The notes below the pieces were generated by a model. The model did not search any database and had not been told where the DNA came from. It worked only from the letters and a program-made list of their open reading frames with translations. Below, one piece after another: positions 5,844 through 53,797 of a stretch of 64,000 nucleotides of DNA. The DNA comes from a virus. The stretch covers positions 32,001 through 96,000 of IMG/VR virus record IMGVR_UViG_3300022872_000001; one strand, given 5' to 3'. The first letter of the stretch is position 1. Each line of letters begins with the position of its first letter. The translations under genes were made by a program, and so were the position numbers.

Positions 5844-5855
5844 ACGAATTACTCC

Positions 5856-6206: not shown

Positions 6207-6224
6207 ATTTGTTGTTCGTATGTT

Positions 6225-6503: not shown

Positions 6504-6512
6504 GCCGTTCTC

Positions 6513-14005: not shown

Positions 14006-14029
14006 AAGATAGCAAACAAAGGAATTAAA

Positions 14030-33793: not shown

Positions 33794-34942
33794 ATGACTG
33801 ATCTTATAATCGTGCCACTGGAGCCCCTGGTTGAAAGATATACGGGAGCCTGGTACGAACATATACCAACCGAATTCCGGCGTGTAAACTTTAACGTCAA
33901 GGTAATTGATGGCGTTACACTTGCATCCGAAGTAGTAGTTGGTACGTTTTTGGATATTAACTCTACTGCAAATTACAAATTCTCGCAGTTGATGGTAATC
34001 TCCAAGATGTTTCACAATAAGGAAATTAAGGACGGTACCGTATTCTTCTTTTCGGATATCGAATTCTGGGGATTGGAATCCGTTCGCCTTCTTGCGCAGA
34101 TGAATGGTATCAAAGTATTTTTGACAGGTTTCCTACACGCGGCTTCCTACACCAAGGAAGACGCTTTTGCCATTGCGGCACCTTATCAGCAATACACTGA
34201 ACTTGGCTGGTTGGCTGCTTTGGATTTGATCTTCGTTGGTTCGCTATATCACAAGAAGCAGGTACTCAATCTCCGTATTCTACCTCTTGCACAATCGGAA
34301 AGGGAGGTCGTTTCCATGGGAAATAAGATTCGCGTAACAAAGAATCCTATATTCCTGCAAGATTACCCTGCACTTGATACAGGCAATAAAAAGAAGAAGG
34401 TCCTGTTGACCAATCGCTTTGATATTGAAAAACGTCCGAATGAAACGTTGGAATTATTCTTCCGACTGAAAATTGAATTTCCAGAATGGGAATTTGTGGT
34501 GACTACTTCCAGGTCTTCCTTCAAAGGCAATAATCAGTTGATTATTAAGGAAGCCTTGCAGTTAGAGAATGAAGGTGTAATCACCATCAAGGCAGGACTA
34601 ACCAAACTCCAGTATTATCAGGAGCTAGCCGAATCAGCAATTATGGTAACGCATTCAATTGAAGAGAACTACGGCTATTGCATAGCTGAATCTCTGATTT
34701 ACGGTTGTGCCCCTTTGATGCGTAAGGGGTTAAGTCACTCAGAATTTACCGACACTGATGCTTTACTATTTGATTCATCCGGTGCCGCTCCTTACATAGT
34801 AGCAGACCCCGGTTCGGATTACGTTAAGCTTCGGACGCTTATGGCTACCTTCGGTACTCCTGCTTTCCCTAAAATACCATTCTTGGATACTTCAGGTATG
34901 GCTAACATCATCAAAGAGATACAGAACCTCACGGGAACATAA
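33794..34942 (+). CDS. GT-B fold glycosyltransferase (GT4-like)
   Basis: LEPLVERYT, NRFDIEKRP, EENYGYCIAESLIYGC (ExFGxxxxEA-like). Confidence 0.85.
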   Translation: MTDLIIVPLEPLVERYTGAWYEHIPTEFRRVNFNVKVIDGVTLASEVVVGTFLDINSTANYKFSQLMVISKMFHNKEIKDGTVFFFSDIEFWGLESVRLLAQMNGIKVFLTGFLHAASYTKEDAFAIAAPYQQYTELGWLAALDLIFVGSLYHKKQVLNLRILPLAQSEREVVSMGNKIRVTKNPIFLQDYPALDTGNKKKKVLLTNRFDIEKRPNETLELFFRLKIEFPEWEFVVTTSRSSFKGNNQLIIKEALQLENEGVITIKAGLTKLQYYQELAESAIMVTHSIEENYGYCIAESLIYGCAPLMRKGLSHSEFTDTDALLFDSSGAAPYIVADPGSDYVKLRTLMATFGTPAFPKIPFLDTSGMANIIKEIQNLTGT

Positions 34943-34943
34943 C

Positions 34944-36254
34944 ATGTCAGTCAATTACGTTGCAGCTGGAATCGAAGCTTACTCTGGCACACCTGGGCAG
35001 CTTCACGTTACGTATGAAGCCAACGAAAAAGAATCCTCTCACTTTGGTAGGAAATATAAACAATGGCTTACCACAGATAAGACGATAACGTACGCCAAAG
35101 GAGGTGGTAAGAAATCCATTATGGCTGCACCCTCTGACGTAATGGTACCTATCGGTTCCGCTGCTTTCGTTAAGGCATGTGGCTTAACTAAGATTCTGGC
35201 AAATCCTATCCATAAGAGTTTTGATAAGACCGCGTTTGAAGCTTTAGGTATTGAATCTATTGTGGATTCAGGAGGCTTCCAGATGTTGAAAGGAACTGTG
35301 CCTTTCGTACATCCGGATGATGTGGTCAAACGCTATAACGACACAGCCAATATTGGTATGCCCTTGGACTTACCTGTGCGTGGTTCTGTTGAGCATCTGT
35401 ATTTTGATCCGGTATCCAAGATGATCAAAGCCAACGATAAATATATTCTGGATAGGCTGAATCCGGGTATTGATCTGGCTTTGATTAGTCATGGTACGTC
35501 CTTGGAAAGGCGCAAACGTCGCTTGGATGTCCTTGATCGGGATGCGAAAGTTATAGCCATTGCAGGTTTGAACATTAAACCTGCGCCGGGTGTTGACCAT
35601 GTCTACAATTCAGTAGAGAATTTGATGTACGTCATCCATAGGTATCATAAGACTGCACGATACTTCCACGTCCTAGGTGTTACGTCCAAGCTATGGATTT
35701 TTATATACGCACTTCTGGACGCTACAGGCTATGTGAAGTCTATTGGTGGAGATTCGGTCAGCCATAGACTGGGTGCCTTAGTAGGTATGTACGACACCTA
35801 TGATTTTGACTCAGTAGAATTGAATCGTAAGACGCCTTACAAAACATCTCTTCCATGCAATTGCCCTATCTGCTCGGTAGTAGATGATTCGCGCATCATT
35901 CAGGAATCTATGATCTTGGAGAGTCACAATCTATGGGTTAGGTCTAAGCAGACAGAATTACTGAGCGATATGGCAAAATCTTATGTCAAGGGAACCTTGC
36001 CTATACGGGAGGTTTATAAGATTCTCCGTCTCACCATGGGTGAACCTCGTTTCGTTGCCATGATTCGTTACATAGAGGAAATCATGGTGACCAATAAATT
36101 CAAACCATTAAGGCATGGTAAAAAGGCTGGCTCCTTATTTGCAGTAGCCCCCAAACATGAAATCTCGGATTCAACCAAAGCCTTAAGCGGTCACTACAAA
36201 GAGGTACTTTCGAAATATGAAAAATTCCACAAAGTTAGTTTCTTCAAAAAATAA
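34944..36254 (+). CDS. dpdA: DpdA / TGT-fold DNA 7-deazaguanine transglycosylase
   Basis: IVDSGGFQ, MPLDLP, FHVLG, DSVSH, Zn site CNCPIC...HNL; in a folE/queD/queE cluster. Confidence 0.85.
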   Translation: MSVNYVAAGIEAYSGTPGQLHVTYEANEKESSHFGRKYKQWLTTDKTITYAKGGGKKSIMAAPSDVMVPIGSAAFVKACGLTKILANPIHKSFDKTAFEALGIESIVDSGGFQMLKGTVPFVHPDDVVKRYNDTANIGMPLDLPVRGSVEHLYFDPVSKMIKANDKYILDRLNPGIDLALISHGTSLERRKRRLDVLDRDAKVIAIAGLNIKPAPGVDHVYNSVENLMYVIHRYHKTARYFHVLGVTSKLWIFIYALLDATGYVKSIGGDSVSHRLGALVGMYDTYDFDSVELNRKTPYKTSLPCNCPICSVVDDSRIIQESMILESHNLWVRSKQTELLSDMAKSYVKGTLPIREVYKILRLTMGEPRFVAMIRYIEEIMVTNKFKPLRHGKKAGSLFAVAPKHEISDSTKALSGHYKEVLSKYEKFHKVSFFKK

Positions 36255-36654
36255 GAAGGATAAGAGTAAAAATAAGAGTAAAAATAAGAGTAAGGATAAA
36301 ACCAAGAAGAAACCGTTGGTACGCACCTTAGGTGGTTTGGTATTTTATCCGAAACTTAAGAAAACCCGCACTGATATTTTTTATTCAGTTGCAGAATGGA
36401 TAGAAGCTAAGAAGCCAGACAATGTTTATATCCATGATGCCCTGGAAACCTTGAATACAGCGAACATTGAAATAGTTGACGCTGTGTGTCACAGAGGTGT
36501 TTATACGAAAACCATAGTTCGACCTATGGTTACAACCACAGTAAATAAGATAGGATTACGCAATTTGCATCCGCGACAAAGTCCTACAATGGTTAAAACT
36601 ATGGCCGGCATTCACGTTGCTGACGTGCGCGACCATCACAAAATGGTCTACTAA
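36217..36654 (+). CDS. hypothetical protein with Lys-rich N-terminal repeat (KSKN)
   Basis: ORF; AAGAGTAAAAAT-type short repeats. Confidence 0.55.
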   Translation: MKNSTKLVSSKNKKDKSKNKSKNKSKDKTKKKPLVRTLGGLVFYPKLKKTRTDIFYSVAEWIEAKKPDNVYIHDALETLNTANIEIVDAVCHRGVYTKTIVRPMVTTTVNKIGLRNLHPRQSPTMVKTMAGIHVADVRDHHKMVY

Positions 36655-36667
36655 CAAGGAATTATTT

Positions 36668-37330
36668 ATGCAATATTCAAAAGATGTGGAAGTAGGAATG
36701 GCTGTTCATGAACACCTAATTGCGCGTGGTGTTGAGACTCCCTTCACTTTCAAAGAGCCTAATAAGGCCTCGATTGAACAGCATTTCATCGGCATCATGC
36801 AGGAGATCGGTTTGGACCTAGCAGATGATTCATTGATCGAAACACCAAAACGATTAGCCAAGCTATACACTACCGAGTTCTGTTCTGGTTTAGACTATCG
36901 TAATTTCCCCAAAGCTACCGTGGTAGAAAACAAGATGTGCTATGACGAAATGGTTCTGGAACGGAATGTACAGGTATACAGTCTCTGTGAACATCATTTT
37001 TTACCTGTGGTAGGCGGAGCCTTCGTGGCTTACATTCCGAATGAAAAGGTAATCGGTCTGTCCAAGCTTAATCGTATCGTTGACTTCTTTAGCCGTCGTC
37101 CTCAGATTCAGGAACGGTTAACTGCGCAGATTCAGGAGACCCTTAAGTTTCTTTTGGAAACGGATAACGTTGCGGTAGTCATTCAAGCTGAACATATGTG
37201 CGTTAAGCTGCGTGGTGTTGAGGATGCTTGCAGTGACACTACAACATCGAAATTGAGCGGCACATTCAAGACCAATCCTACTACGCGGGCTGAATTCTTC
37301 TCCCTGTGCAAAGGCTTGTTGCCTGTATGA
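36668..37330 (+). CDS. folE: GTP cyclohydrolase I
   Basis: ETPKRLAK, SLCEHHFLP, GLSKLNR, RRPQIQERLT, AEHMCVKLRGV. Confidence 0.96.
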   Translation: MQYSKDVEVGMAVHEHLIARGVETPFTFKEPNKASIEQHFIGIMQEIGLDLADDSLIETPKRLAKLYTTEFCSGLDYRNFPKATVVENKMCYDEMVLERNVQVYSLCEHHFLPVVGGAFVAYIPNEKVIGLSKLNRIVDFFSRRPQIQERLTAQIQETLKFLLETDNVAVVIQAEHMCVKLRGVEDACSDTTTSKLSGTFKTNPTTRAEFFSLCKGLLPV

Positions 37331-37356
37331 TATCACCTGATTCCGAAGGACACATA

Positions 37357-37821
37357 ATGGCCATCCTTGAATTAACAAATAAGCCTATCATTGCAGATAT
37401 CGACGGATGCTGTTTAGATCCTGAGGAACGTATTCCTAACGCTGAGGCTAAGGATTGGGAAGGATACCATGCATTATGGCGCACAGACACGCCAATTATG
37501 GCGGGTTGCCTTACCTACGCCTTGTTCATCGAGTCAGGTCACAATCTGATTTTCGTTACAGCCCGGGAAGAAAAAGCCAGGGAATACACTCTGTTCCAAC
37601 TTCGGAAGTTCATATCACCTAACGTAACCTCTGATATGTTGTTGATGCGGCCCAATGACAGCTATTCCATTCCGGATGTGGTATTGAAACCCCAATTGGT
37701 TCAGGACGCAGGTTACAAAATTGAGGATATCTTGATGGTATTCGAAGACCGAACTGTAATGGTTAATGAGTGGCGACGATTGGGTGTCATCTGTTATCAA
37801 ACCGCACAACGCGACGATTAA
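37357..37821 (+). CDS. HAD phosphatase (PseT/PNKP phosphatase-domain-like)
   Basis: ADIDG, FVTAR, LLMRP, FEDR. Confidence 0.85.
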   Translation: MAILELTNKPIIADIDGCCLDPEERIPNAEAKDWEGYHALWRTDTPIMAGCLTYALFIESGHNLIFVTAREEKAREYTLFQLRKFISPNVTSDMLLMRPNDSYSIPDVVLKPQLVQDAGYKIEDILMVFEDRTVMVNEWRRLGVICYQTAQRDD

Positions 37822-37828
37822 GGCTCCT

Positions 37829-38089
37829 ATGGCTTTCTCTCTGTTTCCCAAATTGGTATATGGAATACAAAAGGTAACGTTTCATCCTAAATCAGCTATA
37901 GATTATATACTGGGTGATACGGTATACGTAATTATGGATCCCTTGGAACCTAGCATGGGAGCAGAGGGAATAATAACCCTAGTTTATCCGGATGACACAT
38001 ATCAGGTTGTTCTCACAGGTTTGAATGTTGGCGTATCTTTGCGCGTAAATAAGAAACAGTTAATAAATAAAAGGTTTGAAAATGAGTAA
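37829..38089 (+). CDS. hypothetical protein (SH3-like beta pattern)
   Basis: ORF between the HAD and queE genes. Confidence 0.55.
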   Translation: MAFSLFPKLVYGIQKVTFHPKSAIDYILGDTVYVIMDPLEPSMGAEGIITLVYPDDTYQVVLTGLNVGVSLRVNKKQLINKRFENE

Positions 38090-38888
38090 AGTTATCCCTA
38101 TAGTTTCTGTCATTCAAAATGTGGATCGTAACGTAAAAGCTAAGGAATATGATGCATTAGATGGCGATCTTCTCGTCACTTCCATATTCCGCACCATTCA
38201 AGGCGAAGGTCCCTACGCAGGTTACCCTTCTGTCTTCGTTCGGTTAGCTGGTTGCAACTTTGGTTCCAAGGATTCCAATTGCCAGTTTTGTGATTCTTTT
38301 TTCGGATTCGATCAAGGCCGGCGTGTTTCTTCCTTGCAGCTACTTGAAGAACTTACCAGTCTGCCAGGTTATAACTCTCAGGATGTGTTGGTCGTCACAG
38401 GCGGCGAGCCAACGCTGCAACTCGCACTTATCGAATTGTTGGTTAAGGCTAACCTGTATTTCGCGCATGTGCAGATTGAAACGAATGGTACTCAGTCTGG
38501 ATTCTTTAAGCGCGTAGAAGAATTGAATGTCCAGCGTCAGTTCATGACCGTGGTGAGCCCTAAGGCATCCTACCTAGCTAAGCGCTATTCGGAGCTTTCT
38601 CCTATCGTTATGTGGAACGCTACCTGTTTGAAGTTTGTTGTTGATTCCGATCCTGAAAGTCCACATCATATCGTGCCTCAATGGGCTTTTGATTCGCAGA
38701 AGAAGATCTACGTTTCTCCTATGGCAGTGTATCTCAAACCTTATGCTGGTGAAGTATCCAGCATCTGGGAGGACGGTTTGATCGATAAGGCAGCTACTGA
38801 AAAGAACTACAAATATGCGGCTGAGTACGCAATGAAACATAATGTCCTACTGTCGGTACAGACACATTTATTCCTGGGGTTGGCATAA
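38082..38888 (+). CDS. queE: 7-carboxy-7-deazaguanine synthase (radical SAM)
   Basis: FRTIQGEG, VFVRLAGCNFGSKDSNCQFCDS, VTGGEPTLQ, IETNG, VSPK, LSVQTH. Confidence 0.93.
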   Translation: MSKVIPIVSVIQNVDRNVKAKEYDALDGDLLVTSIFRTIQGEGPYAGYPSVFVRLAGCNFGSKDSNCQFCDSFFGFDQGRRVSSLQLLEELTSLPGYNSQDVLVVTGGEPTLQLALIELLVKANLYFAHVQIETNGTQSGFFKRVEELNVQRQFMTVVSPKASYLAKRYSELSPIVMWNATCLKFVVDSDPESPHHIVPQWAFDSQKKIYVSPMAVYLKPYAGEVSSIWEDGLIDKAATEKNYKYAAEYAMKHNVLLSVQTHLFLGLA

Positions 38889-39133
38889 TGGATGACGATC
38901 AACTTCTTCCGTACATAGATACGGTAGCACCTACTCATGAGCGCTTGAGCTGTACGGATACCTCGCCGTGCAACTCGCGCTATGCACCTGATGATTTTGG
39001 TGGTTGTTATCGGTGCACCTTGCTTGCAGCACGTAGGCAAGGTATAGAGGAGGCTGCGCAGTTTATTCTTACTCATCCAAAGAAGAATTCGCCCCGCGCC
39101 AAGTTGGTTAAAGACCTATTGGAGATACCATGA
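38888..39133 (+). CDS. hypothetical protein with Cys cluster
   Basis: SCTDTSPCN...GCYRCTLL. Confidence 0.65.
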   Translation: MDDDQLLPYIDTVAPTHERLSCTDTSPCNSRYAPDDFGGCYRCTLLAARRQGIEEAAQFILTHPKKNSPRAKLVKDLLEIP

Positions 39134-39236
39134 CCTCTGCTTCTAATCCGGTAATAATAAGGTGCACAATACCAAGGGTGACCGCAAGGCTAAAGCTAAA
39201 CAAGCAAAACAGTCACGCAAGAGGAATAGAAAATGA
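39130..39236 (+). pseudogene. frameshifted relic with GNNK...KQSRKRNRK tail
   Basis: SD-ATG at 39130 is out of frame with a module shared by the next two ORFs. Confidence 0.5.
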
Positions 39237-39481
39237 GTCCATTAGATGACGACGATCCTTTAATTACCCAGCCTACTGTAATTGATGAATCTTCTATTCT
39301 CCCAATATATCGTGCACCTACGGTAGATGATGAAATGGGTGGTATAGACGGGCGTAACCATAACGGTTTCTTTAAGAACTACGTAGAGCGCATTGGTAAT
39401 AATAAAGCACATCGCCCTATAAAGAAACGTAGGACTTTAGCCAAGCTGGTAAAGCAATCGCGCAGGAGGAATAGAAAATGA
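39233..39481 (+). CDS. small protein with basic C-terminal module
   Basis: Ends GNNKAHRPIKKRRTLAKLVKQSRRRNRK. Confidence 0.7.
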   Translation: MSPLDDDDPLITQPTVIDESSILPIYRAPTVDDEMGGIDGRNHNGFFKNYVERIGNNKAHRPIKKRRTLAKLVKQSRRRNRK

Positions 39482-39708
39482 ATACCCCAAGATATAACTT
39501 TATGTTGGCAGCCATAGCTGCATTAGGTACTGTAGGTACACCCGTAGAGCGTAAGGAATATCAGCCACCTAGTGAACCTAGTGCGGTTTACAAAGGCCCT
39601 GAAGGTGTTTGTCGCTGCGGTAACAACAAGAAATTCAAAACCTTTGATGAGCGTAAGGCGAAGAAGGCTGCAAAGAAGAGTCGGCAGCGTAATCGGAGAA
39701 TGAAATGA
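39478..39708 (+). CDS. small protein with basic C-terminal module
   Basis: Ends GNNKKFKTFDERKAKKAAKKSRQRNRRMK. Confidence 0.7.
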   Translation: MNTPRYNFMLAAIAALGTVGTPVERKEYQPPSEPSAVYKGPEGVCRCGNNKKFKTFDERKAKKAAKKSRQRNRRMK

Positions 39709-40232
39709 AACGCTGGAAAAGAACGGATGGATACGTTCGCTATTATAAACCGGACATATCAAGATCAAAACGCCGCAAGCACTATCAATCCAAAGGTCGT
39801 GGTTACAATGTACGTAGATCGGATCGCCCTCGTTATACCTCGAAGGCGTATAAGGAATACGTAGCTTTCTATTCGGCTGAATACCGTGGTTACACATTAG
39901 GTGAACTAATGGCAACCGAGCTTTACGAAGAATCCAATAGGCCTGGTTTTATGAGTCGCATCCTAGGGCTTAAGAATGTTATGACTCCCGAAACTCCTGA
40001 AGAGAAGGAACGTCGTATACGGAGAGAGATTTATAAGGAACACACAAAGCCGTATGATCGCCGTAAGAGTTATAAACTGACCGATGAAATGCGGGAAACC
40101 TACAAACGTAAGAAATCGGAAGCCGATGCGAAGTCTCCAGGAATGTTTCCTATACTCTCTTCTTGGTTAACAAATTCAACAGGTATGCGTCTGGAAGAAA
40201 TTCTACGGGACTCTTTCAAAAATTACCCATAA
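39705..40232 (+). CDS. basic hypothetical protein
   Basis: ATGA coupling, R/K/Y-rich. Confidence 0.7.
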   Translation: MKRWKRTDGYVRYYKPDISRSKRRKHYQSKGRGYNVRRSDRPRYTSKAYKEYVAFYSAEYRGYTLGELMATELYEESNRPGFMSRILGLKNVMTPETPEEKERRIRREIYKEHTKPYDRRKSYKLTDEMRETYKRKKSEADAKSPGMFPILSSWLTNSTGMRLEEILRDSFKNYP

Positions 40233-40245
40233 CTAAGGAATTATT

Positions 40246-40596
40246 ATGACTCAAATTTATAAAGACCACAACGGCGTTACTGTCACAGCTATTCCAGCGT
40301 CTGTTAAGATTGAAAATCTTCCTGTACAAGAGGGGCACGTCTACACTGTGGATTCAGGGATTCGCCAACAAGTTATTCACTTTCAGTCTGGTCCTGTCCC
40401 TACAAGTGGTGTCAACGGTTTGACCAACGAAGCTTTGCTAACCATCCTTATTCACCGTACAAAGATTCTTGATGCCAAATTCGGATGCGATGAGAACAAA
40501 CGTGCTATCCAACATATGGAAGAAGCCCTCGTAAACCTTGAGGTACGCACAGCACGTCGTATGGTTAGAGGTGTCGAAGGTAAGGAAGTTACATGA
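40246..40596 (+). CDS. tad1: Tad1-like anti-Thoeris immune-signal sponge
   Basis: IHFQSGPV...GVNGLTNEALL...CDENKRAIQHMEEAL..L..RTARRMVRGVEG matches the recalled Tad1 consensus. Confidence 0.8.
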   Translation: MTQIYKDHNGVTVTAIPASVKIENLPVQEGHVYTVDSGIRQQVIHFQSGPVPTSGVNGLTNEALLTILIHRTKILDAKFGCDENKRAIQHMEEALVNLEVRTARRMVRGVEGKEVT

Positions 40597-40749
40597 TTAA
40601 ATGTGAGGTTATAACTCCCTCTTTATCCTCTGCTGTAGCTGATTGGTATCAAAGGGCTGCCAATTCTCTAGAAGTTTCCCGTTTCCTATCTGGTTCCTCA
40701 TCTGTCTTTTGACCTACCTCCGGACAGCACCTGGACTAAAACATTTATA

Positions 40750-41109
40750 ATGGATACGTATCAGGAGGGACTTGCTATTCTAAGTACAGATAGAGCTTTC
40801 CCAGGTACAGTAAGCATTTGTCTTCATGTATTGCCTAGCACCCGTCAGAAATTGACCGCAGGTTCTCTAATAGCATTCTCTCATGACTATGCGAGATTCA
40901 ATCTTGCTTGTAAATACTTGGAATGGACGGTACATGGTACCAACGATAAGTGTCTATCTCTGTCCTTGATTAAAGCCACTCAGTGGGGACAGCGTGATGA
41001 CGTAATGTGGGATTCTGAATTAGGTGAGAGTGTTGCTGCTCATTCCTTCCGTTATAAATTAAAAGATAAGAGGTTATACCGTGGAAAAAGAAGTAATCAA
41101 GTTTCTTGA
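40750..41109 (+). CDS. hypothetical protein
   Basis: ORF in run. Confidence 0.55.
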   Translation: MDTYQEGLAILSTDRAFPGTVSICLHVLPSTRQKLTAGSLIAFSHDYARFNLACKYLEWTVHGTNDKCLSLSLIKATQWGQRDDVMWDSELGESVAAHSFRYKLKDKRLYRGKRSNQVS

Positions 41110-41524
41110 AACTGCCTGCAAACGTGCAGATTACAATCCTGCATTAACCATTTTGGTGGTGACTGCGCGGGAAGATGTTTTTGATGACATTCGCAAAGCA
41201 GTGCACAACATCTGTTTAACCGCCCTCAAGGCATCCTGGGCCTCGGATAACGGAGACTTTGATGAATTCTCCGTAGAACCTGTATCCACAGTTTGGCTTA
41301 CTCCCAATGATGAGTTCACACCGCGCGGGCACTCGTCAATTGCAGCCATTGTTGATGCTGAAACTAAACCTACTCCAGGTACGGTAAAAGCGATTGCCCT
41401 TTCCTTGGCCGATAAATCTCGTTCCTTGAAACTTGATGTTAAATCGATGATTCTGGAGGCTTCCTTATTTGGAGGCTACAGTAGAAACGATTGGACATCC
41501 GATGATCCTAAGGAATCAGCATGA
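41081..41524 (+). CDS. hypothetical protein
   Basis: GAGG-GTG start. Confidence 0.65.
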   Translation: MEKEVIKFLETACKRADYNPALTILVVTAREDVFDDIRKAVHNICLTALKASWASDNGDFDEFSVEPVSTVWLTPNDEFTPRGHSSIAAIVDAETKPTPGTVKAIALSLADKSRSLKLDVKSMILEASLFGGYSRNDWTSDDPKESA

Positions 41525-41736
41525 GTTACGGTGAAGGTCCCGTAATATACAGCCTTCCTAAACTTATCTTAGATAAGGAATATCAGGAACAGATTACTTC
41601 CACCTCTGTGTATTTGAACGGTAGGTGGGTACCTGCTCGCTGCACCCAACGTATCCCCGGTTTCTTCGGAAAACTTAAACTTGCCTATGGTGTATTCACA
41701 GGTAAATACGATGTTCTGGATTGGGACGGTCAGTAA
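41521..41736 (+). CDS. hypothetical protein
   Basis: GRWVPAR...KLKLAYGVFTGKYDVL phage-type motif. Confidence 0.75.
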   Translation: MSYGEGPVIYSLPKLILDKEYQEQITSTSVYLNGRWVPARCTQRIPGFFGKLKLAYGVFTGKYDVLDWDGQ

Positions 41737-41975
41737 TGGACAATAAGACACGGAAGAAACTAGCTAAACAGGTCATCAAGAATGTGTTTGGTGAATTACG
41801 GAATGATAATCCAAAAGAAGTAATTGACGCATTGGAAGATGCACATAAGGATAATGTCAAACTTATTAAGGATAACTCAAGACTTGAAAAGGAGAATGCT
41901 ATCTTAGCTGCTGAAAACCGTGAGCTGAAAACTAAACTTGGCTTACCTGTACCTACTTTGTCGGAACACGATTAA
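41736..41975 (+). CDS. coiled-coil hypothetical protein
   Basis: TAATG coupling. Confidence 0.65.
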   Translation: MDNKTRKKLAKQVIKNVFGELRNDNPKEVIDALEDAHKDNVKLIKDNSRLEKENAILAAENRELKTKLGLPVPTLSEHD

Positions 41976-41984
41976 GGAGTTATC

Positions 41985-42305
41985 ATGGCTGATTTCTTCA
42001 TTACTGAATCACAGGTTATTGGTAAGGTTCATGCTCTACGTAGTACTTGTAAACAGCATCATTTGAATCTTAAATACGGCTTTGTTATTGACGCTTTGTC
42101 TCGTGCCGTGGGCTGTAAGAGCCATGCTGATTTTCTAACGACAATCCGAAACCACAAACCAGTTAAGGCTTTCAGTTTATCTGTATTCATAGAACGCCTA
42201 TCTAGTCTAACCTCTCTTGAATTTGCAATTAAGGTAGAGGCAGTTCTTATTGATACGCAGTACGCAGAGAATTTTAATAACCATATCAAAGAAGCCGAGG
42301 AATAA
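41985..42305 (+). CDS. hypothetical protein
   Basis: AAGGAG SD. Confidence 0.7.
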   Translation: MADFFITESQVIGKVHALRSTCKQHHLNLKYGFVIDALSRAVGCKSHADFLTTIRNHKPVKAFSLSVFIERLSSLTSLEFAIKVEAVLIDTQYAENFNNHIKEAEE

Positions 42306-42456
42306 ACATATACGTGCTACAGATGCGGCCTCTATGAACAAAGCACATGTTCATCCTGTAATTCGAATTAATGCGCTGGATGATTTTCAGATCGAAACAA
42401 TATCGAACATCAATAAGCTTATCAAAAGTCTTAAAGATCAACTCAAGGAAATTAAA

Positions 42457-43134
42457 ATGCCTCAAGAAATTAAAGTTTTAAATCATGGATCCATTCGTTT
42501 GGTAGATCACATGGGTAGTGACCTTTCTGTTGTTAGGTCGGCCCGTGTTAGTTATGATGCTGAATGGCGCGCAGGGGAAGACGCAGGTAAAGATGCAAAA
42601 CTCATTAACTACCTGATGAAAAATCATCATACTTCTCCTTTCGAATCTGTTACCTTTACCTTTGAAGTCAAAGCCCCTATATTTGTGTTTCGCCAGTGGC
42701 ATCGTCATCGCACCTGGTCTTTCAATGAAATCTCTGCGCGTTACTCGGAATTACCGGAAGAGTATTACGTACCTGAGGTGTGCAAGATTACAAGCCAATC
42801 TGTAAATAATAAGCAGCAGCGAACTGAAGAAATTATTGAGTCAGCTATCTATGTAAAAGATCTTATAGATAGACAATGCGCGGGCGCGTTTGCTACCTAT
42901 AAAGAACTACTAGCCAAAGGTTGCCCGCGTGAACTTGCCCGAGGTGTTTTGCCAGTTAATACCTACAGTAAAATGTTTGCCACAATTGATCTGCATAACC
43001 TTCTTGGATTCATTCGTTTGCGTGATCATAGCCATGCCCAATATGAGATTCAGGTATATGCTCAAGCCATGCTGGAACTGATTGAACCTATTGTACCAGA
43101 ATCAATTAAGGCTTTTAAATCAACCTTGGTTTAA
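42457..43134 (+). CDS. thyX: FAD-dependent thymidylate synthase
   Basis: SARVSY, HTSPFE, RQWHRHRTWSFNEISARY (ThyX motif), ELARGVLP; start re-called to MPQEIKV. Confidence 0.96.
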   Translation: MPQEIKVLNHGSIRLVDHMGSDLSVVRSARVSYDAEWRAGEDAGKDAKLINYLMKNHHTSPFESVTFTFEVKAPIFVFRQWHRHRTWSFNEISARYSELPEEYYVPEVCKITSQSVNNKQQRTEEIIESAIYVKDLIDRQCAGAFATYKELLAKGCPRELARGVLPVNTYSKMFATIDLHNLLGFIRLRDHSHAQYEIQVYAQAMLELIEPIVPESIKAFKSTLV

Positions 43135-43299
43135 GAACGTTATGACCCCCTTAATGGTTCCGATCTACCTCTGGATGAAATGCGCAGTTACCGTCCTGTT
43201 GAATTTTTAATGCCTAAGGACGATGAGGTTTCAGCTCATCTCTATCTAAACCGAATGAACGTGCCACGTTACACGTTAAGCTGTCAACTTTACCAGCGT

Positions 43300-44454
43300 T
43301 CGATTCACTGAGCGCCTTTTCACAGTAATGTGATTAGCAAACCTTGTTAAACGGGGGATAGCTCACGTAGCCAATCCCGTGCTAACTTTCTAATTAATTG
43401 TAGGTGTACATTTTAGGTATCCAATTTAATATCGTTATTATTTAGCGAGGTTAATATGGATATACTATGTGGTGTTTATAAGATAACTAGTAAGGCGACA
43501 AAAAGGTTTTATTACGGAAGTTCTGCTAATATGCGTAAACGTAAGAAAGGTCACTTAAAGGCACTTTCAAACAATAGACATCATAATAGTAGACTACAGG
43601 CAGTGTACAACTCTTACGGGTTACATGACCTATCTTTTACCGTAGTAAAGCTATGTAGTATTACTAGAGCGCGAAAATTAGAGCAACAATACATTACTGA
43701 TAATTGTAAAAATAAGAAAATGCTAAATATAGGCTTAGGCGCCATAGGTGGTGATAACTTAACTAACAATCCAAACCGTAAAACTATAGTTGCGAAAATT
43801 ACTAAAGCTGTGCAGGACCGTATGAATACAATGACCAAGGCAGAACGAGTTGAAGCTTTTGGTAGACAAGGTCCTGCAAATGGTATGTATGGTAAAACTC
43901 ATACAAAAGAAGCTAGAGCAAAAATATCTAAAAACAATACTGGTAAAACTATAGATCATAGTGGTTGGGTTCCAACTTCTGAAAATGTCGCTAACTATCA
44001 AAAGGCAGCAAGACTAAGAGTTGCACAAGAGGATTACGTAAACCCTTTCACAGATAAAGTACACAGTAAGAAGACTTTAAAACATTTGTCTAACCTTGCT
44101 AAAGCTCGGTATGCTTCAGGCATACTTCCAGGTAATACACGCAAAGTTAAGATAGAAGGTAAAGTATATGAAAGTGTTTCTGCTGCAAGCCGAGCAATCG
44201 GCAAAGGTAAACCTACTATCGTATATCGCTTAAAATCTCCTTACTGGGACTACATATATTTAGATTAAATGCCTAACGACTATCGAACGCACGTATTAAA
44301 TACGGAAGCTAGTAGAGTAGAGCCAAGTGGCTCGAAGTGCAAGGATTCCTTTAGTTAGGAATGTGATATAGTCTACTCTGCATAGTGATATGCAGCAGCC
44401 TGTAACTGAGGACGACAGGCGGTTATAGTCTAACGAACTATAGCGAATATAATG
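43300..44454 (+). mobile_element. group I self-splicing intron (phage IA2-like); 5' splice site uncertain by a few nt
   Basis: P3 CCTTGT(43342)/GCAAGG(44339), P4 ACGGG/CCCGT, P7 GACTA(44278)/TAGTC(44369), P8 TTCCT/AGGAA, P9-9.2 hairpins, 5' exon ends in T, terminal G, in-frame rejoining QR|SCD. Confidence 0.9.
43456..44268 (+). CDS. intron-encoded GIY-YIG homing endonuclease (I-TevI/I-BmoI-like, NUMOD3)
   Basis: CGVYKI...FYYGSS..MRKR...H, EQQYI, LNI; NGMYGKTHTKEARAKIS; C-terminal HTH. Confidence 0.92.
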   Translation: MDILCGVYKITSKATKRFYYGSSANMRKRKKGHLKALSNNRHHNSRLQAVYNSYGLHDLSFTVVKLCSITRARKLEQQYITDNCKNKKMLNIGLGAIGGDNLTNNPNRKTIVAKITKAVQDRMNTMTKAERVEAFGRQGPANGMYGKTHTKEARAKISKNNTGKTIDHSGWVPTSENVANYQKAARLRVAQEDYVNPFTDKVHSKKTLKHLSNLAKARYASGILPGNTRKVKIEGKVYESVSAASRAIGKGKPTIVYRLKSPYWDYIYLD

Positions 44455-44744
44455 TCTTGTGATTCCTTCCTCAGCGTTCCGTTCAACATCGCCAGCTATG
44501 CATTGCTAACTGAAATGATGGCACAACAGGTAAACATGGTTGCTGATGAATTTATCTGGACAGGCGGCGACTGCCATATCTACTCCAATCATTACGAACA
44601 GGTGGAAGAACAGTTATCGCGTGAACCATTCCCGTATCCAACATTGAAGCTCAATAAAGCTGCATCAATTTTCGATTATAAATTTGAAGATATTGTTATC
44701 GAGGACTATCAATGTCATCCAGCGATCAAAGCGCCAGTAGCCGT

Positions 44745-45164
44745 ATGACCTCCCTTACTGAATCTAACGCCAACGACTATTTAGTTTGGTCAGACATGGT
44801 TCAGGATTATGATCCTGATTTAACTTGGGAGCGCATAAAGAATGCCTGGAATACGATCCTGTTTAATCCTGACATATACGGATATTTGATAAGGGTGGAC
44901 AATCAGATCGTAGGCTTCGCGCATTTGGTGTACCATACATTCCCATTTGCGGTAGGCACTACGTGTTATTTATCCGATCTCTACGTTAAGCGTGAGTTTC
45001 GACGTAAAGGAATCGCTACCGAAGTTCTTAATCAATTTATTCAAATTGCGAAAGACAGTAAATGGGAAAGGTTATATTGGGTTACTGAACACGGTAACCC
45101 GGCGCGTACTCTATACGACTCAGTTGCAAAGTGTGAGTTTGTGCGCTACCACACAGATTTTTAG
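44745..45164 (+). CDS. GNAT N-acetyltransferase
   Basis: YLSDLYV...RRKGIAT, LYWVT...NPARTLYD. Confidence 0.88.
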
Positions 45165-45555: not shown

Positions 45556-46437
45556 ATGTTAACCTCTCAGAGAGTAGTTAATCCGAACTCCCTAAAATTT
45601 CATCCGTATGATGATACCGATCTTGTTGAACTGCGCAATCAGGTAATTAGTAGTTCTAAGCTCCTTGTTGATTCTCAATTGTTTAGTGAGGAGCACTCAT
45701 TTGATGATCTTCTGGAAAAGATCTTTAAGTTTAAAGGCTCGACCGATGCGCAGGTACAGGAAAAGGTTGATAAGTTATTTCAGTTTTCAAAATTGCCTTT
45801 CGACCCTTTTGTTATTGAGCATGAGAAGGGATTATTTGTATTAACGAATTCCGATAAGGGCATCAAATTTAAAGCTATCCATTCAGATGGTTCAGTTCAT
45901 CCTTTTGGCGCTTCTTTAGACAGGATTGTTCGGGAGAACAGTAAGCTTTCTCTAAATGCGCACAGTATATGTTCTCCTAGATATGAACTGCATGTTCGTA
46001 ATTCCTATGCAGCTCATATAAATGGTACATTCCAAAAGTGTTCTAAAAACACCGAGGGTGCGCGTTCCTTACACGATTGCGAGGCTCAATGGTCGGTAAT
46101 GTGTCTGGTGCAGGTAATGTACATTCTGATGCTGTTGAATGCTAAGAATGTAGGAACCACCAAGATAAAGCCTTCAAATAAAGAGTCTCAAAATGTTCCT
46201 AAATTCCTGCGCCCAAAATTTGAATATCATATTCTAAATTTGGATAGGCGCGTTAAGGAATTAAAAACATTAATGGATGTACAAAACTATTTTCTACATA
46301 TCCCTTCAGATCGTAGAATGCATATGGTGCGAGGTCATTTCAAATGTTTGAATGGTAATTTACATTGGTGGTCTCCCCACTTGCGCAATAAGACAGCTAA
46401 TGAGTTCCTGGACAAAGATTACAAATTAATTGTATGA
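45556..46437 (+). CDS. hypothetical protein with C-terminal RxHxVRGHF motif
   Basis: RRMHMVRGHFK...WWSPHLR. Confidence 0.75.
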   Translation: MLTSQRVVNPNSLKFHPYDDTDLVELRNQVISSSKLLVDSQLFSEEHSFDDLLEKIFKFKGSTDAQVQEKVDKLFQFSKLPFDPFVIEHEKGLFVLTNSDKGIKFKAIHSDGSVHPFGASLDRIVRENSKLSLNAHSICSPRYELHVRNSYAAHINGTFQKCSKNTEGARSLHDCEAQWSVMCLVQVMYILMLLNAKNVGTTKIKPSNKESQNVPKFLRPKFEYHILNLDRRVKELKTLMDVQNYFLHIPSDRRMHMVRGHFKCLNGNLHWWSPHLRNKTANEFLDKDYKLIV

Positions 46438-49410: not shown

Positions 49411-49857
49411 ATGGCAACGAAGAAACCTGCAGTCAAGAATCAAGGGATGACCTTATCCCAATTAGCGGCTCGAACCACCATGGATCGGATTGAAAGATCT
49501 CGATACGTTAAGCTCCTGAAGACCAAAATGGGACATGACGCAAATGGTTATGGTTTCATAGCCGCGCAAACTACGACTACAAAAGTTGTAGACCAATCTG
49601 GGCGTTTGGTACGTCACGTGGGCAGTAAATATATAACGATGGTAACGTTCTTCGATAAACAATTACATTGCCGCGTTTCTTGCTCCTGCGATGATAATCT
49701 GTTTCGATGGGAGGTTGCGAATACCAAACGCAATGCAGCAGAGATTGAATACTCAAATGGCGAACGTCCCAAGGTTACCAATCCCACCATGAATCCCGGA
49801 CTCTGTAAGCACTTATATGCGCTCTATGTCAGTGTGAGATTTAAACTACCTAAATGA
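49411..49857 (+). CDS. SWIM zinc-finger protein
   Basis: CSC...PGLCKHL. Confidence 0.8.
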   Translation: MATKKPAVKNQGMTLSQLAARTTMDRIERSRYVKLLKTKMGHDANGYGFIAAQTTTTKVVDQSGRLVRHVGSKYITMVTFFDKQLHCRVSCSCDDNLFRWEVANTKRNAAEIEYSNGERPKVTNPTMNPGLCKHLYALYVSVRFKLPK

Positions 49858-49858
49858 G

Positions 49859-50629
49859 TCAAGAAACGTATTCGATGTCAGGAAAGTTCTCTGAGTTTAA
49901 CTGATAGTGCATTGAGCTGCCATTAATTCCCAAATATTTGGCAGCAGAGGTCAGTGTACTAAAAATTTTAGAACCGATCCTGACATTTCTCCCATTCAAT
50001 TCAGTTTGAGCTTTTACCATGCGCTGTTTTGTTTCTTCTGAGAGTTTACGCCCTCTATTGGCTATACTAATCTTTCTACGAGATTCTCTTGACATTACCT
50101 TTAGGCTTGAGCGTTTTCCTATCAAGGCTTTTGTCTCAGCTGAGTGTTTCTTTCCGCGCTTCGCGTTTCCTATGTTTTTTACACCACTCCGGAGTTCTTT
50201 CCATATTCTTCATGAATCTGGACATACGCTTACGCGTCTTTGGTGACATGTTAATTACACCTTCACCACCGTCAGTTAAGTTAGTGAGCGGACCTGTGCC
50301 AAGATCGTAACGACCAATAGTTTTAATTAATTCTTTTTCACGTTTTATAACTTTGGACTTACTCTTTGTAGTAGGTGTGCGTACCACTATCACTTCGTGT
50401 CCTTCTTTCAGTATTTTTCGTATCTTATTGCACTTATGATCCTTGTACACAAAAGAATTTCTATTCGGCGTTGGGCCGCTCGCACATGAATTTCACTCCG
50501 ACTACCTTGACCTAAACCTACGTAGAAAGGTTCGTGGGTAAAATGAGTTTTTGAATCGTATCGAAATTTGGTTTTAGAGGGCTTCCTTGGGTCTAATAGG
50601 GCGTAACAATAATATTGATTTTTAGACAT
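49859..50629 (-). pseudogene. free-standing GIY-YIG-type homing endonuclease with two frameshifts
   Basis: YCYALLDPR...PFYVGLG...H | KIRKILKEG...REKELI..IGR..LGTGPLTNLTDGGEG | RGKKHSAETK, RGRKLSEETKQRM (NUMOD3), HTH; breaks near 50465 and at the A6 run near 50175. Confidence 0.85.
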
Positions 50630-50759
50630 AATGTACTCTCGTAAAGTAATTAACAGTAGATATCAGCTTTGTGATCTAGGTATGGTAGTTACGAGCTACA
50701 TCCAAGGGGATCAGTCCTCATCGTATCACAAGCTGACAAAATTAAATTAAACAAATCTT

Positions 50760-51776
50760 ATGTCTCAAAAACCGTACAGCCATAGTTTTGCTTTTGATAA
50801 AATGAAAAGAACCAAGGAAGAGATAACAGGCAATCTTACGAGCGCCCAGTATCTTCAAACCCTGGATCTTTTCATCTGGAATGCATTATCGCCAATAGCC
50901 GCCGAGTGCCCCTCCTTATTCCTGAATTACCTCGCCAAGGTGATTGCCCGTCAATCGCTTAAGGCTTCTGCAAAATATAGCTCCGACGATAGGACCCAAC
51001 TTCCTATCAGGTTATTTAATACCTTAACTTGCCAAGATCCTACGGTAATGATTAAGAATGCTCGGAAGCTTTATATCAACCGCGGTCTATTGCTAGGGTT
51101 CCTAACCCTATTTCAACGCCGCCTCATTTTCTATTCCAAATTGTGTTCAGGTACCAAACTGCCATATTCAGATCTAAACCGTAAGATACTTATTCTCAAC
51201 ATTGAGCGTTCCATAGGATTACGCGAAGGTGGCATGCTTTATCCTGCCTTAATGGAGGTAGAGTTCTGGGAAAAGAAGGCGCGTAACTTTAAGGCAGCTA
51301 TCGTCCAGAAATACACCAGACTAGCCTTGAATCATGCAAAGGGCGCGTATGAGGATTATTCACACGAAGTTGAGCTGAATGATATCGTGCAGATTTATCT
51401 AATTGTCGTTAACCGTGCCATTGATCGATGTGATTCTCGCCAAGGCGTTCTCACCATCTTCCTTACGAATTGGTTTAAATCTGCAAGGTCCGCAGTAGCT
51501 GAAATGGCTAAGGAGCAGAGACATCAATCCTACGAAGCTCTTACCGAGGAGTTAGGTGATTCAATCCATGAAGCTATTGGTGTCACTCTTCCTGACCTCG
51601 AATGGGAACTACAGCAACATATCGCCTATGTATCCAAGAATATTGATAAAACAGGATTGGTGCGTATTGCTTTAGGCATAAATGAATTTATTACCAAACC
51701 TCAGCAGGCTATACTGCACATGATGGCTTTGGAAACAGACCCTGATATGTACGAAACTCAGGAAACTTCCATATAA
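50760..51776 (+). CDS. divergent sigma70-family RNA polymerase sigma factor
   Basis: IVQKYTRLALNHAK...LNDIVQIYLIVVNRAIDRCDSRQGVLTIFLTNWFK resembles region 2 (DLIQEG..GL..AVD.FD..RG..FSTYA.WWI). Confidence 0.7.
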   Translation: MSQKPYSHSFAFDKMKRTKEEITGNLTSAQYLQTLDLFIWNALSPIAAECPSLFLNYLAKVIARQSLKASAKYSSDDRTQLPIRLFNTLTCQDPTVMIKNARKLYINRGLLLGFLTLFQRRLIFYSKLCSGTKLPYSDLNRKILILNIERSIGLREGGMLYPALMEVEFWEKKARNFKAAIVQKYTRLALNHAKGAYEDYSHEVELNDIVQIYLIVVNRAIDRCDSRQGVLTIFLTNWFKSARSAVAEMAKEQRHQSYEALTEELGDSIHEAIGVTLPDLEWELQQHIAYVSKNIDKTGLVRIALGINEFITKPQQAILHMMALETDPDMYETQETSI

Positions 51777-51785
51777 GGACATCTT

Positions 51786-52250
51786 ATGGTAAATCAAAAA
51801 GTTGAGGAACTCCGGGAGAAACAACGCGTTCAATCAATCGCCTCCCTAAACGTCCTTGTTGATGCCTTAAAATCTACGGTAAGTGACTACCTTATTCGTG
51901 CAGGTCAGGCAGAGGAACTTGCTGGTGTTTTGCTTAATGAGAAACTTACACCGGAGCAGTTATTCGAATTGGCTAGTATCACCATAGGCAAGCATGTTAG
52001 AGACAAAGCGAACGAACGCGCTGTTCACCAACAACAGATATTGCAGACCACTTCGCTTGCAGTAAATAATGTACAACAAATGCTAATTATGTCCGATGAA
52101 CACCTGGATATAATTAAGATTCGTAGTGCAGTAAATATCATAGTACAAGGGTTAGCAACAGCCCTAGGCAATATGAAACACTTTGAGAAGGCAGTGAAGC
52201 TTCCAAGGTCCGATCAACAATCAACGCAATCAACAACGGAGAATTCCTGA
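51786..52250 (+). CDS. hypothetical helical protein
   Basis: AAGGA SD. Confidence 0.75.
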   Translation: MVNQKVEELREKQRVQSIASLNVLVDALKSTVSDYLIRAGQAEELAGVLLNEKLTPEQLFELASITIGKHVRDKANERAVHQQQILQTTSLAVNNVQQMLIMSDEHLDIIKIRSAVNIIVQGLATALGNMKHFEKAVKLPRSDQQSTQSTTENS

Positions 52251-53797
52251 TGGGACAACAAGGGACGAGCCTAGAAGAGATGCGGGGTCCAGGTGGTAAG
52301 GATAAACCTCGCGTTGAAGATCAGGTTCAACTGTACAAATTCCCCAAGCAGAAATATGTGGAAGTTCGAATCTTCGGACCTGTATTCACATACGGTGGCT
52401 TTTGGGTGAACACCACACGCAAGGATGGCAAATCGAAGACCCAGTTCTTCGTCAACGCTCCTTCTTACGACCCAAAGACTCAGACACTTGATAGCTCGGT
52501 GTATGATCCTTGGCGTGATCTGTATGAACAACAGAAGGATTTGCCAAAGGAAGAACGGCAAGTTTCTTTCACAGTAAATGCGTATGTGAATGCAATTCAT
52601 CGGGCGACTCAAAAACAGGCTCCTAAGCATATGCCTAAGCCTACAAAGGCTGAACGCAAGTCTGGTTTTAAGGACAAAGATTCTGATTCATATACGCCGG
52701 TGGTGGCTCTTCGTTTACCATCTAGCGCAATTACCAAGCTCAAAGAGCAAGGTGCTTTGAATGTGCGTACAAAGAAAGGTGAAACTAAAACATATCCTTT
52801 GACGCACGAAAAATATGGCTGCAATGTTCGCGTTAAGTACGATGAAGAAAAATCCCCTGCGGATCGTTATTCGGTAGTTATCGGGGACAAGGCGGCCTTG
52901 ACTGAAAAAGAGTTGGAACTCTTGAAATGGGATTTATCGAATCTCGTTGAAAAGGAAACCGACGAAGAAGTGAAACGCAATTTTGAATCCTGGGCTAAAC
53001 GTAACGGAGTAGATATGGCAACCAAAGCAAAGAAACGCAAATCAGAAGAAGTTGAATTGGACGAAGATGAGGATGAGGACGAAGAAGAGACCTCCTCCAG
53101 CAAAAAGAAGGGTAAGGGCAAGAAAGCTGCCAAGTCCAAGAAGAAAGGTAAGTCCCGTGATGAGGACGACGAAGAAGATGAGGACGACGATGAGGACCTT
53201 GACGAGGACGAGGACGACGAGGATGAGCCTAAGAAGTCCAAAGGTAAAGCCAAGGCTAAATCTAAGTCCAAGGGCAAGAAATCTTCCAGTTCTGATGAGG
53301 ATGAGGATGAAGATGAAGATGAAGATGAGGACGACCTCGATGACGACGAGGACGATGAGGATGACGACGAGGACGACGAGGACGATGAGCCTAAGAAAAA
53401 AGGCAAGTCCAAGGTAAAGGCTAAGTCCAAGGGCAAGAAATCCAAGTCTGAAGATGAAGATGAAGATGAGGACGACGAGGACGAGGACGACGACGAGGAT
53501 GATCTCGATGAGGATGATGAGGATGATGAAGATGAGGATGATGAAGATGAGGATGATGAGCCTAAGAAAAAAGGCAAGTCCAAGTCCAAGGTAAAGGCTA
53601 AGTCCAAGAAATCTTCCAAGTCGGACGACGAGGACGAAGATGAGGACGAAGATGAGGACGAAGATGAGGATGACCTCGATGAGGATGAGGATGACGAAGA
53701 TGAGGATGAGGATGATGAGCCTAAGAAAAAAGGCAAGTCCAAGGTGAAAGCTAAATCCAAACCTGAAAAGAAAGCCGCAAAGAAGAAAAAGAAGTAA
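52250..53797 (+). CDS. putative single-stranded DNA-binding protein with long acidic/basic block tail
   Basis: ~260-aa folded N-terminal domain directly upstream of recA, then alternating D/E and K blocks; the SSB identity is inferred from context. Confidence 0.6.
   Translation: MGQQGTSLEEMRGPGGKDKPRVEDQVQLYKFPKQKYVEVRIFGPVFTYGGFWVNTTRKDGKSKTQFFVNAPSYDPKTQTLDSSVYDPWRDLYEQQKDLPKEERQVSFTVNAYVNAIHRATQKQAPKHMPKPTKAERKSGFKDKDSDSYTPVVALRLPSSAITKLKEQGALNVRTKKGETKTYPLTHEKYGCNVRVKYDEEKSPADRYSVVIGDKAALTEKELELLKWDLSNLVEKETDEEVKRNFESWAKRNGVDMATKAKKRKSEEVELDEDEDEDEEETSSSKKKGKGKKAAKSKKKGKSRDEDDEEDEDDDEDLDEDEDDEDEPKKSKGKAKAKSKSKGKKSSSSDEDEDEDEDEDEDDLDDDEDDEDDDEDDEDDEPKKKGKSKVKAKSKGKKSKSEDEDEDEDDEDEDDDEDDLDEDDEDDEDEDDEDEDDEPKKKGKSKSKVKAKSKKSSKSDDEDEDEDEDEDEDEDDLDEDEDDEDEDEDDEPKKKGKSKVKAKSKPEKKAAKKKKK
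53050..53795 (+). repeat. imperfect tandem repeat encoding D/E blocks and PKKKGKSKVKAKSK blocks
   Basis: GATGAGCCTAAGAAAAAAGGCAAGTCCAAG exact at 53384, 53555, 53714. Confidence 0.95.

Follow-up and report, generated by a model that had tools for sequence, protein, structure and literature searches.

The 64,000-nucleotide stretch analysed here (the window) comprises bases 32001-96000 of the IMG/VR record IMGVR_UViG_3300022872_000001, a linear record of 192,170 bp from a large metagenomic phage with an estimated completeness of 82%; coordinates are positions in the window unless a contig is named. Within it lies a locus at which a complete thyX, encoding the flavin-dependent thymidylate synthase ThyX, directly abuts the truncated remains of thyA, the gene for a second kind of thymidylate synthase, and at which those remains still contain a group I intron with its own homing endonuclease gene (Table 1). 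A first-pass annotation, made from the letters alone, had described 55 open codons directly after the thyX TAA, in the same frame and ending LSCQLYQR, a structurally complete group I intron with an uninterrupted GIY-YIG reading frame, an exon 2 in which the conserved FLG reads FLS, and the absence of the thyA N-terminus with its catalytic PCH. All of these descriptions are borne out by the results presented here, with one qualification concerning the origin of the 55 codons.

Table 1. Features of the thyX-thyA locus (positions in the window).
Feature	Position	Strand	Remarks
thyX, complete flavin-dependent thymidylate synthase gene	42457..43134	+	Pfam Thy1, RHR motif; 225 amino acids
thyA exon 1 tail, pseudogene remnant	43135..43299	+	55 open codons in the thyX frame, ending LSCQLYQR
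Group I intron, td/IA-like	43300..44454	+	1155 nt; inserted after the Arg codon of YQR, an I-BmoI-type site
GIY-YIG homing endonuclease gene, intron-encoded	43456..44268	+	270 amino acids; uninterrupted; GAGG Shine-Dalgarno 5' of the ATG
thyA exon 2	44455..44748	+	97 codons plus stop (294 nt), intact to the natural C-terminus; FLG changed to FLS
GNAT acetyltransferase gene	44712..45164	+	Pfam Acetyltransf_1, E = 2.5e-15; located where relatives have dihydrofolate reductase (DHFR)

The Pfam profile Thy1 (PF02511) matches the thyX product from end to end (positions 1-191 of 191, E = 2.6e-56, 190.9 bits against a cut-off of 24.8), and residues 83-95, RHRTWSFNEISAR, contain the pattern RHR-x7-S-x-R, the signature that defines the ThyX family. 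An AAGGAA Shine-Dalgarno sequence lies 5' of the ATG, the TAA stop occupies 43132-43134, and the end of the gene differs from the ends of its closest relatives by at most one codon. A profile search finds this one copy of thyX in the whole record, and thyX is most likely the working thymidylate synthase of the phage.

Among the 55 open codons that follow the thyX stop, similarity to ThyA is demonstrable for the last 20-36 only (tblastn with jumbo-phage ThyAs, E = 6e-5 to 4.5e-4), and it is for these that the first-pass assignment to thyA stands; the first ~20 codons are not assignable because they fall in a hypervariable, lineage-specific ThyA insert. The closest ThyAs, those of Erwinia jumbo phages and metagenomic relatives, reach ~335-350 amino acids because they carry a variable insert of 37-47 amino acids between PCHAxFQFY and LSCQLYQR, and the 55 codons match this insert plus LSCQLYQR in both position and length. 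On these alignments, the junction between thyX and thyA can only be placed somewhere between about 43125 and 43195, and the reading frame common to thyX and the 55 codons is not informative by itself. The seven bases directly after the thyX TAA, GAACGTT, are common to the relative L166 described below. Two further candidates for fixing the junction were rejected: an additional GTTTA match with L166 requires a 2-nt gap and is too short to interpret, and the (S/T)L-x-ER motif found in the ThyA insert can be aligned across the thyX stop only loosely. Repeats flanking thyX were likewise rejected as a signature of recombination, because the only pairs found are short and imperfect (42157/43100, 14 of 16 positions; 43206/44265, 16 of 19, the latter resembling the J6/7-P7 region of the intron) and, by our own estimate, ~2-5 such pairs are expected by chance in 6.5 kb.

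Exon 2 matches the Pfam profile Thymidylat_synt (PF00303) over positions 169-266 of 266 with an E value of 8.9e-40. In the motifs YQRSxDxxLGxPFN (R, S, D, G and N) and GDxHxY (H and Y), all of the invariant residues are kept except for one Gly, which is replaced by Ser. When 83 equivalents of exon 2 were aligned, the window sequence deviated at just one of the 26 columns conserved at 95% or more, the Gly of FLG; Ser occurs at this position in none of the 82 homologues, and L166 has Gly. This substitution is the only sign of relaxation. A relative-rate count with 82 outgroups, used instead of a pairwise ratio of nonsynonymous to synonymous rates against L166 since synonymous sites are saturated at 72% nucleotide identity, gives a mean of 4.2 lineage-specific exon 2 changes for the window compared with 8.2 for L166. 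In a search of 5.8 billion protein clusters, the best match to exon 2 is a 99-amino-acid open reading frame of L166 (76% identity), ranked below nothing other than an identical 77-amino-acid fragment of the window's own phage. The lack of excess divergence and the single change at conserved columns suggest that exon 2 was constrained nearly throughout the time since its split from the L166 lineage, and the truncation looks recent.

Neither the window nor the rest of the 192,170-bp record encodes the N-terminal half of ThyA, which would include the catalytic Cys (PCH), as judged by a PF00303 profile search that recovers nothing beyond profile positions 168/169-266, well short of a complete ThyA fold. 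Searching the same record by tblastn with four full-length ThyAs, at E values up to 5, returns exon 2 and the exon 1 remnant only. The thyA leftovers, 165 nt of exon 1 and 294 nt of exon 2, are, on the reading favoured below, a young pseudogene that cannot encode the enzyme, and for annotation this means that the 98-amino-acid open reading frame called as a 'thymidylate synthase' is a pseudogene exon.

The insert between the two exons is, by the covariation seen in all of its core helices, a real and complete group I intron. Its 5' boundary reads CAGCGT/TCGATTCAC at 43294-43308 and its 3' boundary AATATAATG/TCTTGTGAT at 44446-44463, with U at position -1 and a terminal G at 44454, and excision would join the exons as YQR/SCD. 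The Rfam model RF00028 scores 22.3 bits (E = 0.016) against a gathering threshold of 50, a low value that results from the 813-nt reading frame splitting the core. The first 17 nt are identical in L166, and the sequence resembles the td intron of T4. By blastn the 3' core matches 297 phage records. Dickeya phage JA29 and Proteus phage phiP4-3 both have an annotated intron with a GIY-YIG gene at this position of thyA, and that of JA29 is 78.9% identical to the window's over the 3' core (E = 7e-23). Alignment with JA29, phiP4-3 and the contigs L051, L058 and L081 leaves 48 invariant columns in the 5' part and 62 in the 3' part. Helices P1 (GCGU/GCGC with the U.G pair at the 5' splice site), P2, P4 and P5 are recovered in the 5' part with compensatory changes at 9 of 20 pairs, and P7, a hairpin between P7 and P3', P8, P9 and P9.2 in the 3' part with changes at 12 of 32 (21 of 52 pairs in total). 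P3 and P9.1 were recovered with RNAalifold on sequences from which the reading frame had been deleted, and P3 also covaries (CCUUG/CAAGG in the window, CUCCAU/GUGGAG in JA29, CCUCUC/GGGAGG in L051). The guide sequence for P10 varies together with the Ser codon of exon 2: where that codon is UCU or UCA (the window, JA29 and L166), the guide has an additional GA facing it, and where it is AGU or AGC (L051, L058 and L081), the guide reads ACU.

A perfect 9-bp complement exists between the 5' splice-site region at 43294-43302 (GCGTTCGAT) and 44282-44290, just 3' of the P7 strand (ATCGAACGC); it is present in L166 as well, and imperfect in JA29, and could represent an alternative pairing that competes with P1, or chance. 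Contig L178 has an intron lacking any reading frame at the same thyA site (735-1052, with a small opposite-strand reading frame called inside it), which scores 77 bits with Rfam and is comparable to the window intron by its site; it may represent what remains once the endonuclease gene has been lost in the course of the homing cycle. In the jumbo-phage contigs L058 (4071-4366) and L081 (4044-4315), thyA contains another interruption of ~270-300 nt near codon 86-88, probably a second intron lacking a reading frame. Counts of promoter- and terminator-like sites at the locus are not above those of shuffled sequence, and no terminator is found between thyX and the intron, so that the intron is probably co-transcribed with thyX and the GNAT gene.

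The reading frame within the intron contains no stop and gives matches to three Pfam families above their cut-offs: GIY-YIG (27.5 bits, cut-off 22.6), NUMOD3 (28.6, cut-off 20.4) and I-TevI_DNA-bd (30.9, cut-off 27). Its product aligns collinearly and over the full length with T4 I-TevI (23% identity, pairwise E = 1e-16), matching both I-TevI domains of solved structure (1mk0 and 1i3j). Counterparts of G4/Y6, Y17, R27, H31 and H40, catalytic positions of I-TevI, are visible in the alignment. Identity to the endonucleases of L166 and L179 is 47.5-48%.

The history of the locus is best read from its relatives. The 56-kb contig L166 is collinear with the window over 32119-38885 and 49444-53038, at 35-58% amino acid identity; the first of these blocks is a deazaguanine-type cluster in which FolE and a radical-SAM protein are confirmed by Pfam. 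At the same position as the window's locus, L166 has a complete thyA, comprising an exon 1 of 237 amino acids with PPCH, the intron, a GIY-YIG endonuclease gene of 271 amino acids (47.5% identical to that of the window) and exon 2, and its DHFR gene starts 9 nt after the thyA stop. In L177 and L179 the endonuclease gene, exon 2 and DHFR follow one another in this order with exon 1 upstream, and L051, L058 and L081 have a full thyA interrupted at the same codon. Exon 1 is kept in all of the other examined carriers of an intron at this site (L051, L058, L081, L177, L178, L179, JA29 and phiP4-3). L008 has an intact thyA followed by DHFR, and in both L008 and L005 an intact thyA lies ~3.4 kb downstream of a radical-SAM gene that they have in common with the window. 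This synteny, including DHFR placed directly after thyA in L166, L177, L179 and L008, indicates that the lineage of the window once had a thyA(intron)-DHFR module at this slot. In the wider clade, the RecA-like protein of the window is ~50% identical to those of phiRSL1 and BcepSauron; thyA is present in Motura, L005 and L008, and BcepSauron has only thyX. Searches of viral contigs with the flanking genes at 45556-46437 and 41081-41524 as queries gave no closer syntenic relatives, and megablast of the locus against 50,697 phage records gave no near-identical ones. None of 80 thyX loci has a ThyA remnant near thyX, and no thyX lies within 6 kb of thyA at any of 80 ThyA loci; the arrangement in which thyX abuts a thyA stump is therefore unique among the loci sampled.

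The fate of DHFR is part of the same picture. The ThyX reaction yields tetrahydrofolate, and lineages with ThyX tend to be without DHFR. No DHFR is found in the 192-kb record at E <= 1, nor was one found in BcepSauron, and the presence of thyX together with the lack of DHFR fits a switch from ThyA/DHFR to ThyX. In the window, the start of the GNAT gene overlaps the 3' end of thyA, either at 44712, where an ATG is preceded by GAGGA-N6, or at ATG 44745 with an ATGA stop/start overlap at 44745-44748; the start is called differently among assemblies, giving 150 or 139 amino acids.

Taken together, these results favour the view that thyX recently displaced the non-orthologous thyA in situ and left a mobile intron stranded, a reading to which we assign a probability of roughly 80%. 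It is carried by the synteny with L166, by the retention of exon 1 in the other carriers of the intron, and by the gene content of the record (one thyX, no DHFR and no ThyA N-terminal half), and agrees with what the first-pass annotation had proposed for the thyX-thyA boundary and the stranded endonuclease. Starting from the gene content, junctions, synteny, intron architecture, lack of decay and assembly independence observed here, a sequence of events may be outlined. The ancestor would have been a large phage resembling phiRSL1 and BcepSauron, with a thyA-DHFR module in which thyA was interrupted after the YQR Arg codon by a mobile group I intron encoding a GIY-YIG endonuclease, an arrangement still present in L166, L177 and L179. 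Recombination would have brought in a foreign thyX and removed ~180-190 codons of thyA, including the catalytic Cys, leaving at most the final 55 codons of exon 1 in front of the intron. DHFR would have been lost too, in the same or a separate event, with the GNAT gene now in its place, and thyX would now make thymidylate (dTMP) without a need for DHFR. The intron and its endonuclease gene would have remained untouched, and splicing from a thyX-to-GNAT transcript probably persists, because all that P1 requires of exon 1 is its final four bases, and all that P10 requires of exon 2 is its opening bases. No intron-less target for the endonuclease exists in the carrier's own genome, and it is plausible, judging by the intact sequence, that the enzyme can still cut the intron-less thyA alleles of co-infecting relatives, with the 165-bp and 294-bp exon stumps perhaps serving as homology arms for homing. 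The further suggestion that thyX allowed an escape from the intron gains no support, a spliced intron being phenotypically neutral.

A number of points weigh against this reading. The best ThyX relatives, 82% identical in amino acid sequence, sit on viral contigs without any other gene in common with the window, and DNA similarity is limited to 42454-43116, the coding sequence, as would suit a foreign thyX, but no donor closer than this 82% was found. Nor does composition mark thyX as foreign: its codon usage fits the genome (89th percentile among the genome's long open reading frames), its GC content at third codon positions is 0.34 against a genome mean of 0.43 (standard deviation 0.06), and we rejected the two measures as uninformative on this question. 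The codon fit means either that the donor was alike in composition or that thyX arrived earlier than the intact state of the stump would lead one to expect; we regard it as a mild tension with recency that leaves room for a compositionally similar donor. The left edge of the replaced segment is not placeable, since the small genes at 38889-42456 have no counterparts in the relatives, and with the record 82% complete an N-terminal half of thyA might in principle lie elsewhere in the genome. Finally, the lack of excess amino acid divergence in exon 2 and the openness of all 55 codons would also fit continued selection on the fragment.

This last point leads to the alternative that survives best, that the thyA fragment has been kept by selection for a function of its own, which we nevertheless consider improbable. 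The candidates would be a spliced mini-ThyA of 137 amino acids from ATG 43180, the 98-amino-acid open reading frame from ATG 44452, or a translated leader coupled to the GNAT gene. Such a function would be in keeping with the open frame and the single deviation at conserved columns, with an exon 2 branch shorter than that of L166, and with the overlap of the GNAT start and the thyA end at either of its two possible positions. Against this, the sole conserved-column deviation hits a Gly that is invariant in the homologues, neither ATG is preceded by a Shine-Dalgarno sequence, and the fragment has neither the catalytic Cys nor the larger part of the fold; translational coupling, for its part, would keep the frame open rather than preserve the amino acid sequence. 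The same considerations apply to the idea, also raised in the first-pass annotation, that the mini-ThyA acts as a dominant-negative subunit, for which we found no support and know of no precedent.

If thyX had instead been resident already, the intron and its flanking pieces of thyA could have been copied in later by aborted or illegitimate homing, presumably from a co-infecting thyA phage, and nothing would have been overwritten. Stumps of 165 and 294 nt are sized like co-conversion tracts, exon 2 looks fresh, and the genome is rich in mobile elements. We think such an ectopic arrival quite improbable all the same: thyA occupies exactly this slot in the collinear relatives, exon 2 extends to the natural thyA stop, and its best match among the 5.8 billion clusters comes from the genome most closely related to the window's, diverged to a degree compatible with vertical descent. 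In addition, homing requires a homologous target, which a thyX-only phage lacks.

The incompleteness of the record also allows for a split gene, in which thyA would be functional, with its N-terminal two thirds encoded in the remaining ~18% of the genome and the parts assembling. We give this very little weight, as the 192 kb yield no N-terminal half to either the profile or the tblastn search, the break lies right against the thyX stop without any intein or start signal, DHFR is missing as well, and thyX makes thyA redundant. A chimera joining a thyX phage to a thyA phage, conceivable in any metagenome assembly, can be discounted almost entirely, because the junction is spanned at 100% identity to the window by three contigs assembled separately from other samples (L169, SRR31153004; L170, SRR7549133; L172, JGI 3300036378) and the 3' side, with the endonuclease gene, exon 2 and the GNAT gene, is covered by the further contigs L167 and L171, contigs of this type having been retrieved by exact look-up of the ThyX and endonuclease proteins. 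Besides the three samples named, the phage is represented in JGI 3300036425 and 3300028090.

Conceivably, the intron and endonuclease left behind might even act as a gene drive for the displacement itself, an idea that we hold to be unlikely. During co-infection, the endonuclease would cut the intron-less thyA of a relative; resection beyond the 165-bp exon 1 stump would lead repair to use homology further upstream, and such repair would copy thyX and the thyA deletion into the rival genome. The carrier would be immune because it has neither a target site nor any dependence on thyA. Were this to operate, a selfish element would be spreading a non-orthologous replacement through a phage population, and would double as a weapon against thyA phages.

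Elsewhere in the window and in its relatives, other insertions are evident, and the phage group to which the window belongs is heavily colonised by inteins and introns. The open reading frame at 53880-56489 encodes a RecA/UvsX-like recombinase of 869 amino acids that matches the ~480-500-amino-acid RecA-like proteins of phiRSL1 and BcepSauron in two pieces (~53% covered); the two are separated by an in-frame insertion that carries NUMOD4 and HNH_3 domains (residues ~248-365) and is probably either an intein or an endonuclease inserted in frame. In L166, the radical-SAM (QueE-like) gene at 4788-6617 encodes 609 amino acids, compared with 270 for the window gene, and similarity is limited to the two ends, which indicates that it carries a large insert; a further L166 gene at 13255-15054 has intein-splicing and LAGLIDADG domains. 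Upstream of thyX, searches of the small flanking open reading frames with PHROGs and Pfam returned no function bearing on the displacement event. One of them (40246-40596) encodes a protein of 116 amino acids that strongly matches PHROG 2428, a family of unknown function (E = 1.5e-30); a precomputed table lists a 'faint' Acb2/Tad1-hairpin Pfam match for it, a Pfam scan at E <= 0.001 gives nothing, and the protein could be an anti-defence sponge. Two 54-nt direct repeats at 39183-39236 and 39428-39481, 245 nt apart and 74% identical, both end in AGGAGGAATAGAAAATGA, a Shine-Dalgarno sequence plus start codon, and look like tandem paralogous small genes.

The genes thyA and thyX are a textbook replacement pair, and such swaps are mostly inferred from trees. 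The locus described here would provide a dated, base-level example of a swap from thyA to thyX in a phage, with DHFR lost as the biochemistry predicts. It would also offer a natural test of the life cycle of homing endonucleases, in that the host gene is dead and splicing is irrelevant to the carrier. The practical value is modest: besides the point on annotation made above, specificity studies of the I-BmoI site gain a further GIY-YIG enzyme.

The thymidylate synthases encoded by thyA and thyX are unrelated, and each has taken the place of the other through lateral transfer in which viruses were often the carriers (Stern et al., 2010; PMC2826268). Displacements were deduced in that survey from where on the trees each gene is present or absent, and thy pseudogenes were found in none of the 19 genomes checked that carried both genes; here, in contrast, the stump of the displaced gene directly abuts the incoming one. 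The td intron of T4, which encodes I-TevI, has an intron core homologous to that of the window, nearly identical in places within the P4-P6 and P7 regions, and td adjoins frd (DHFR), as thyA adjoins DHFR in the window's relatives. However, the td intron lies 21 nt further downstream, at FLG/LPFN, td is complete and functional whereas the window has a truncated host gene, a thyX and no DHFR, and the window endonuclease is without the zinc finger cysteines of I-TevI. A parallel in insertion site is the thyA intron of Bacillus mojavensis with I-BmoI, which is likewise inserted right after the conserved Arg codon. The bases critical for I-BmoI are G-2 and G+7 (PMC3664794), and both are present in the window site CGT/TCTTGTGAT, G-2 as the second base of the Arg codon and G+7 as the first base of the Asp codon; the window's intron differs from this system in that its host gene is truncated and that it resides in a phage of Gram-negative type rather than in Bacillus. 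JA29, phiP4-3, L166, L177, L179, L051, L058 and L081 have a homologous intron at the same site as the window, with endonucleases of 35-48% amino acid identity, but all have a full exon 1 with the catalytic Cys and no thyX nearby. Every component of the locus is thus of a known kind, and what is unusual is the configuration, with an incoming analogue set against the stump of the gene it displaced and a live-looking mobile intron in a dead host gene.

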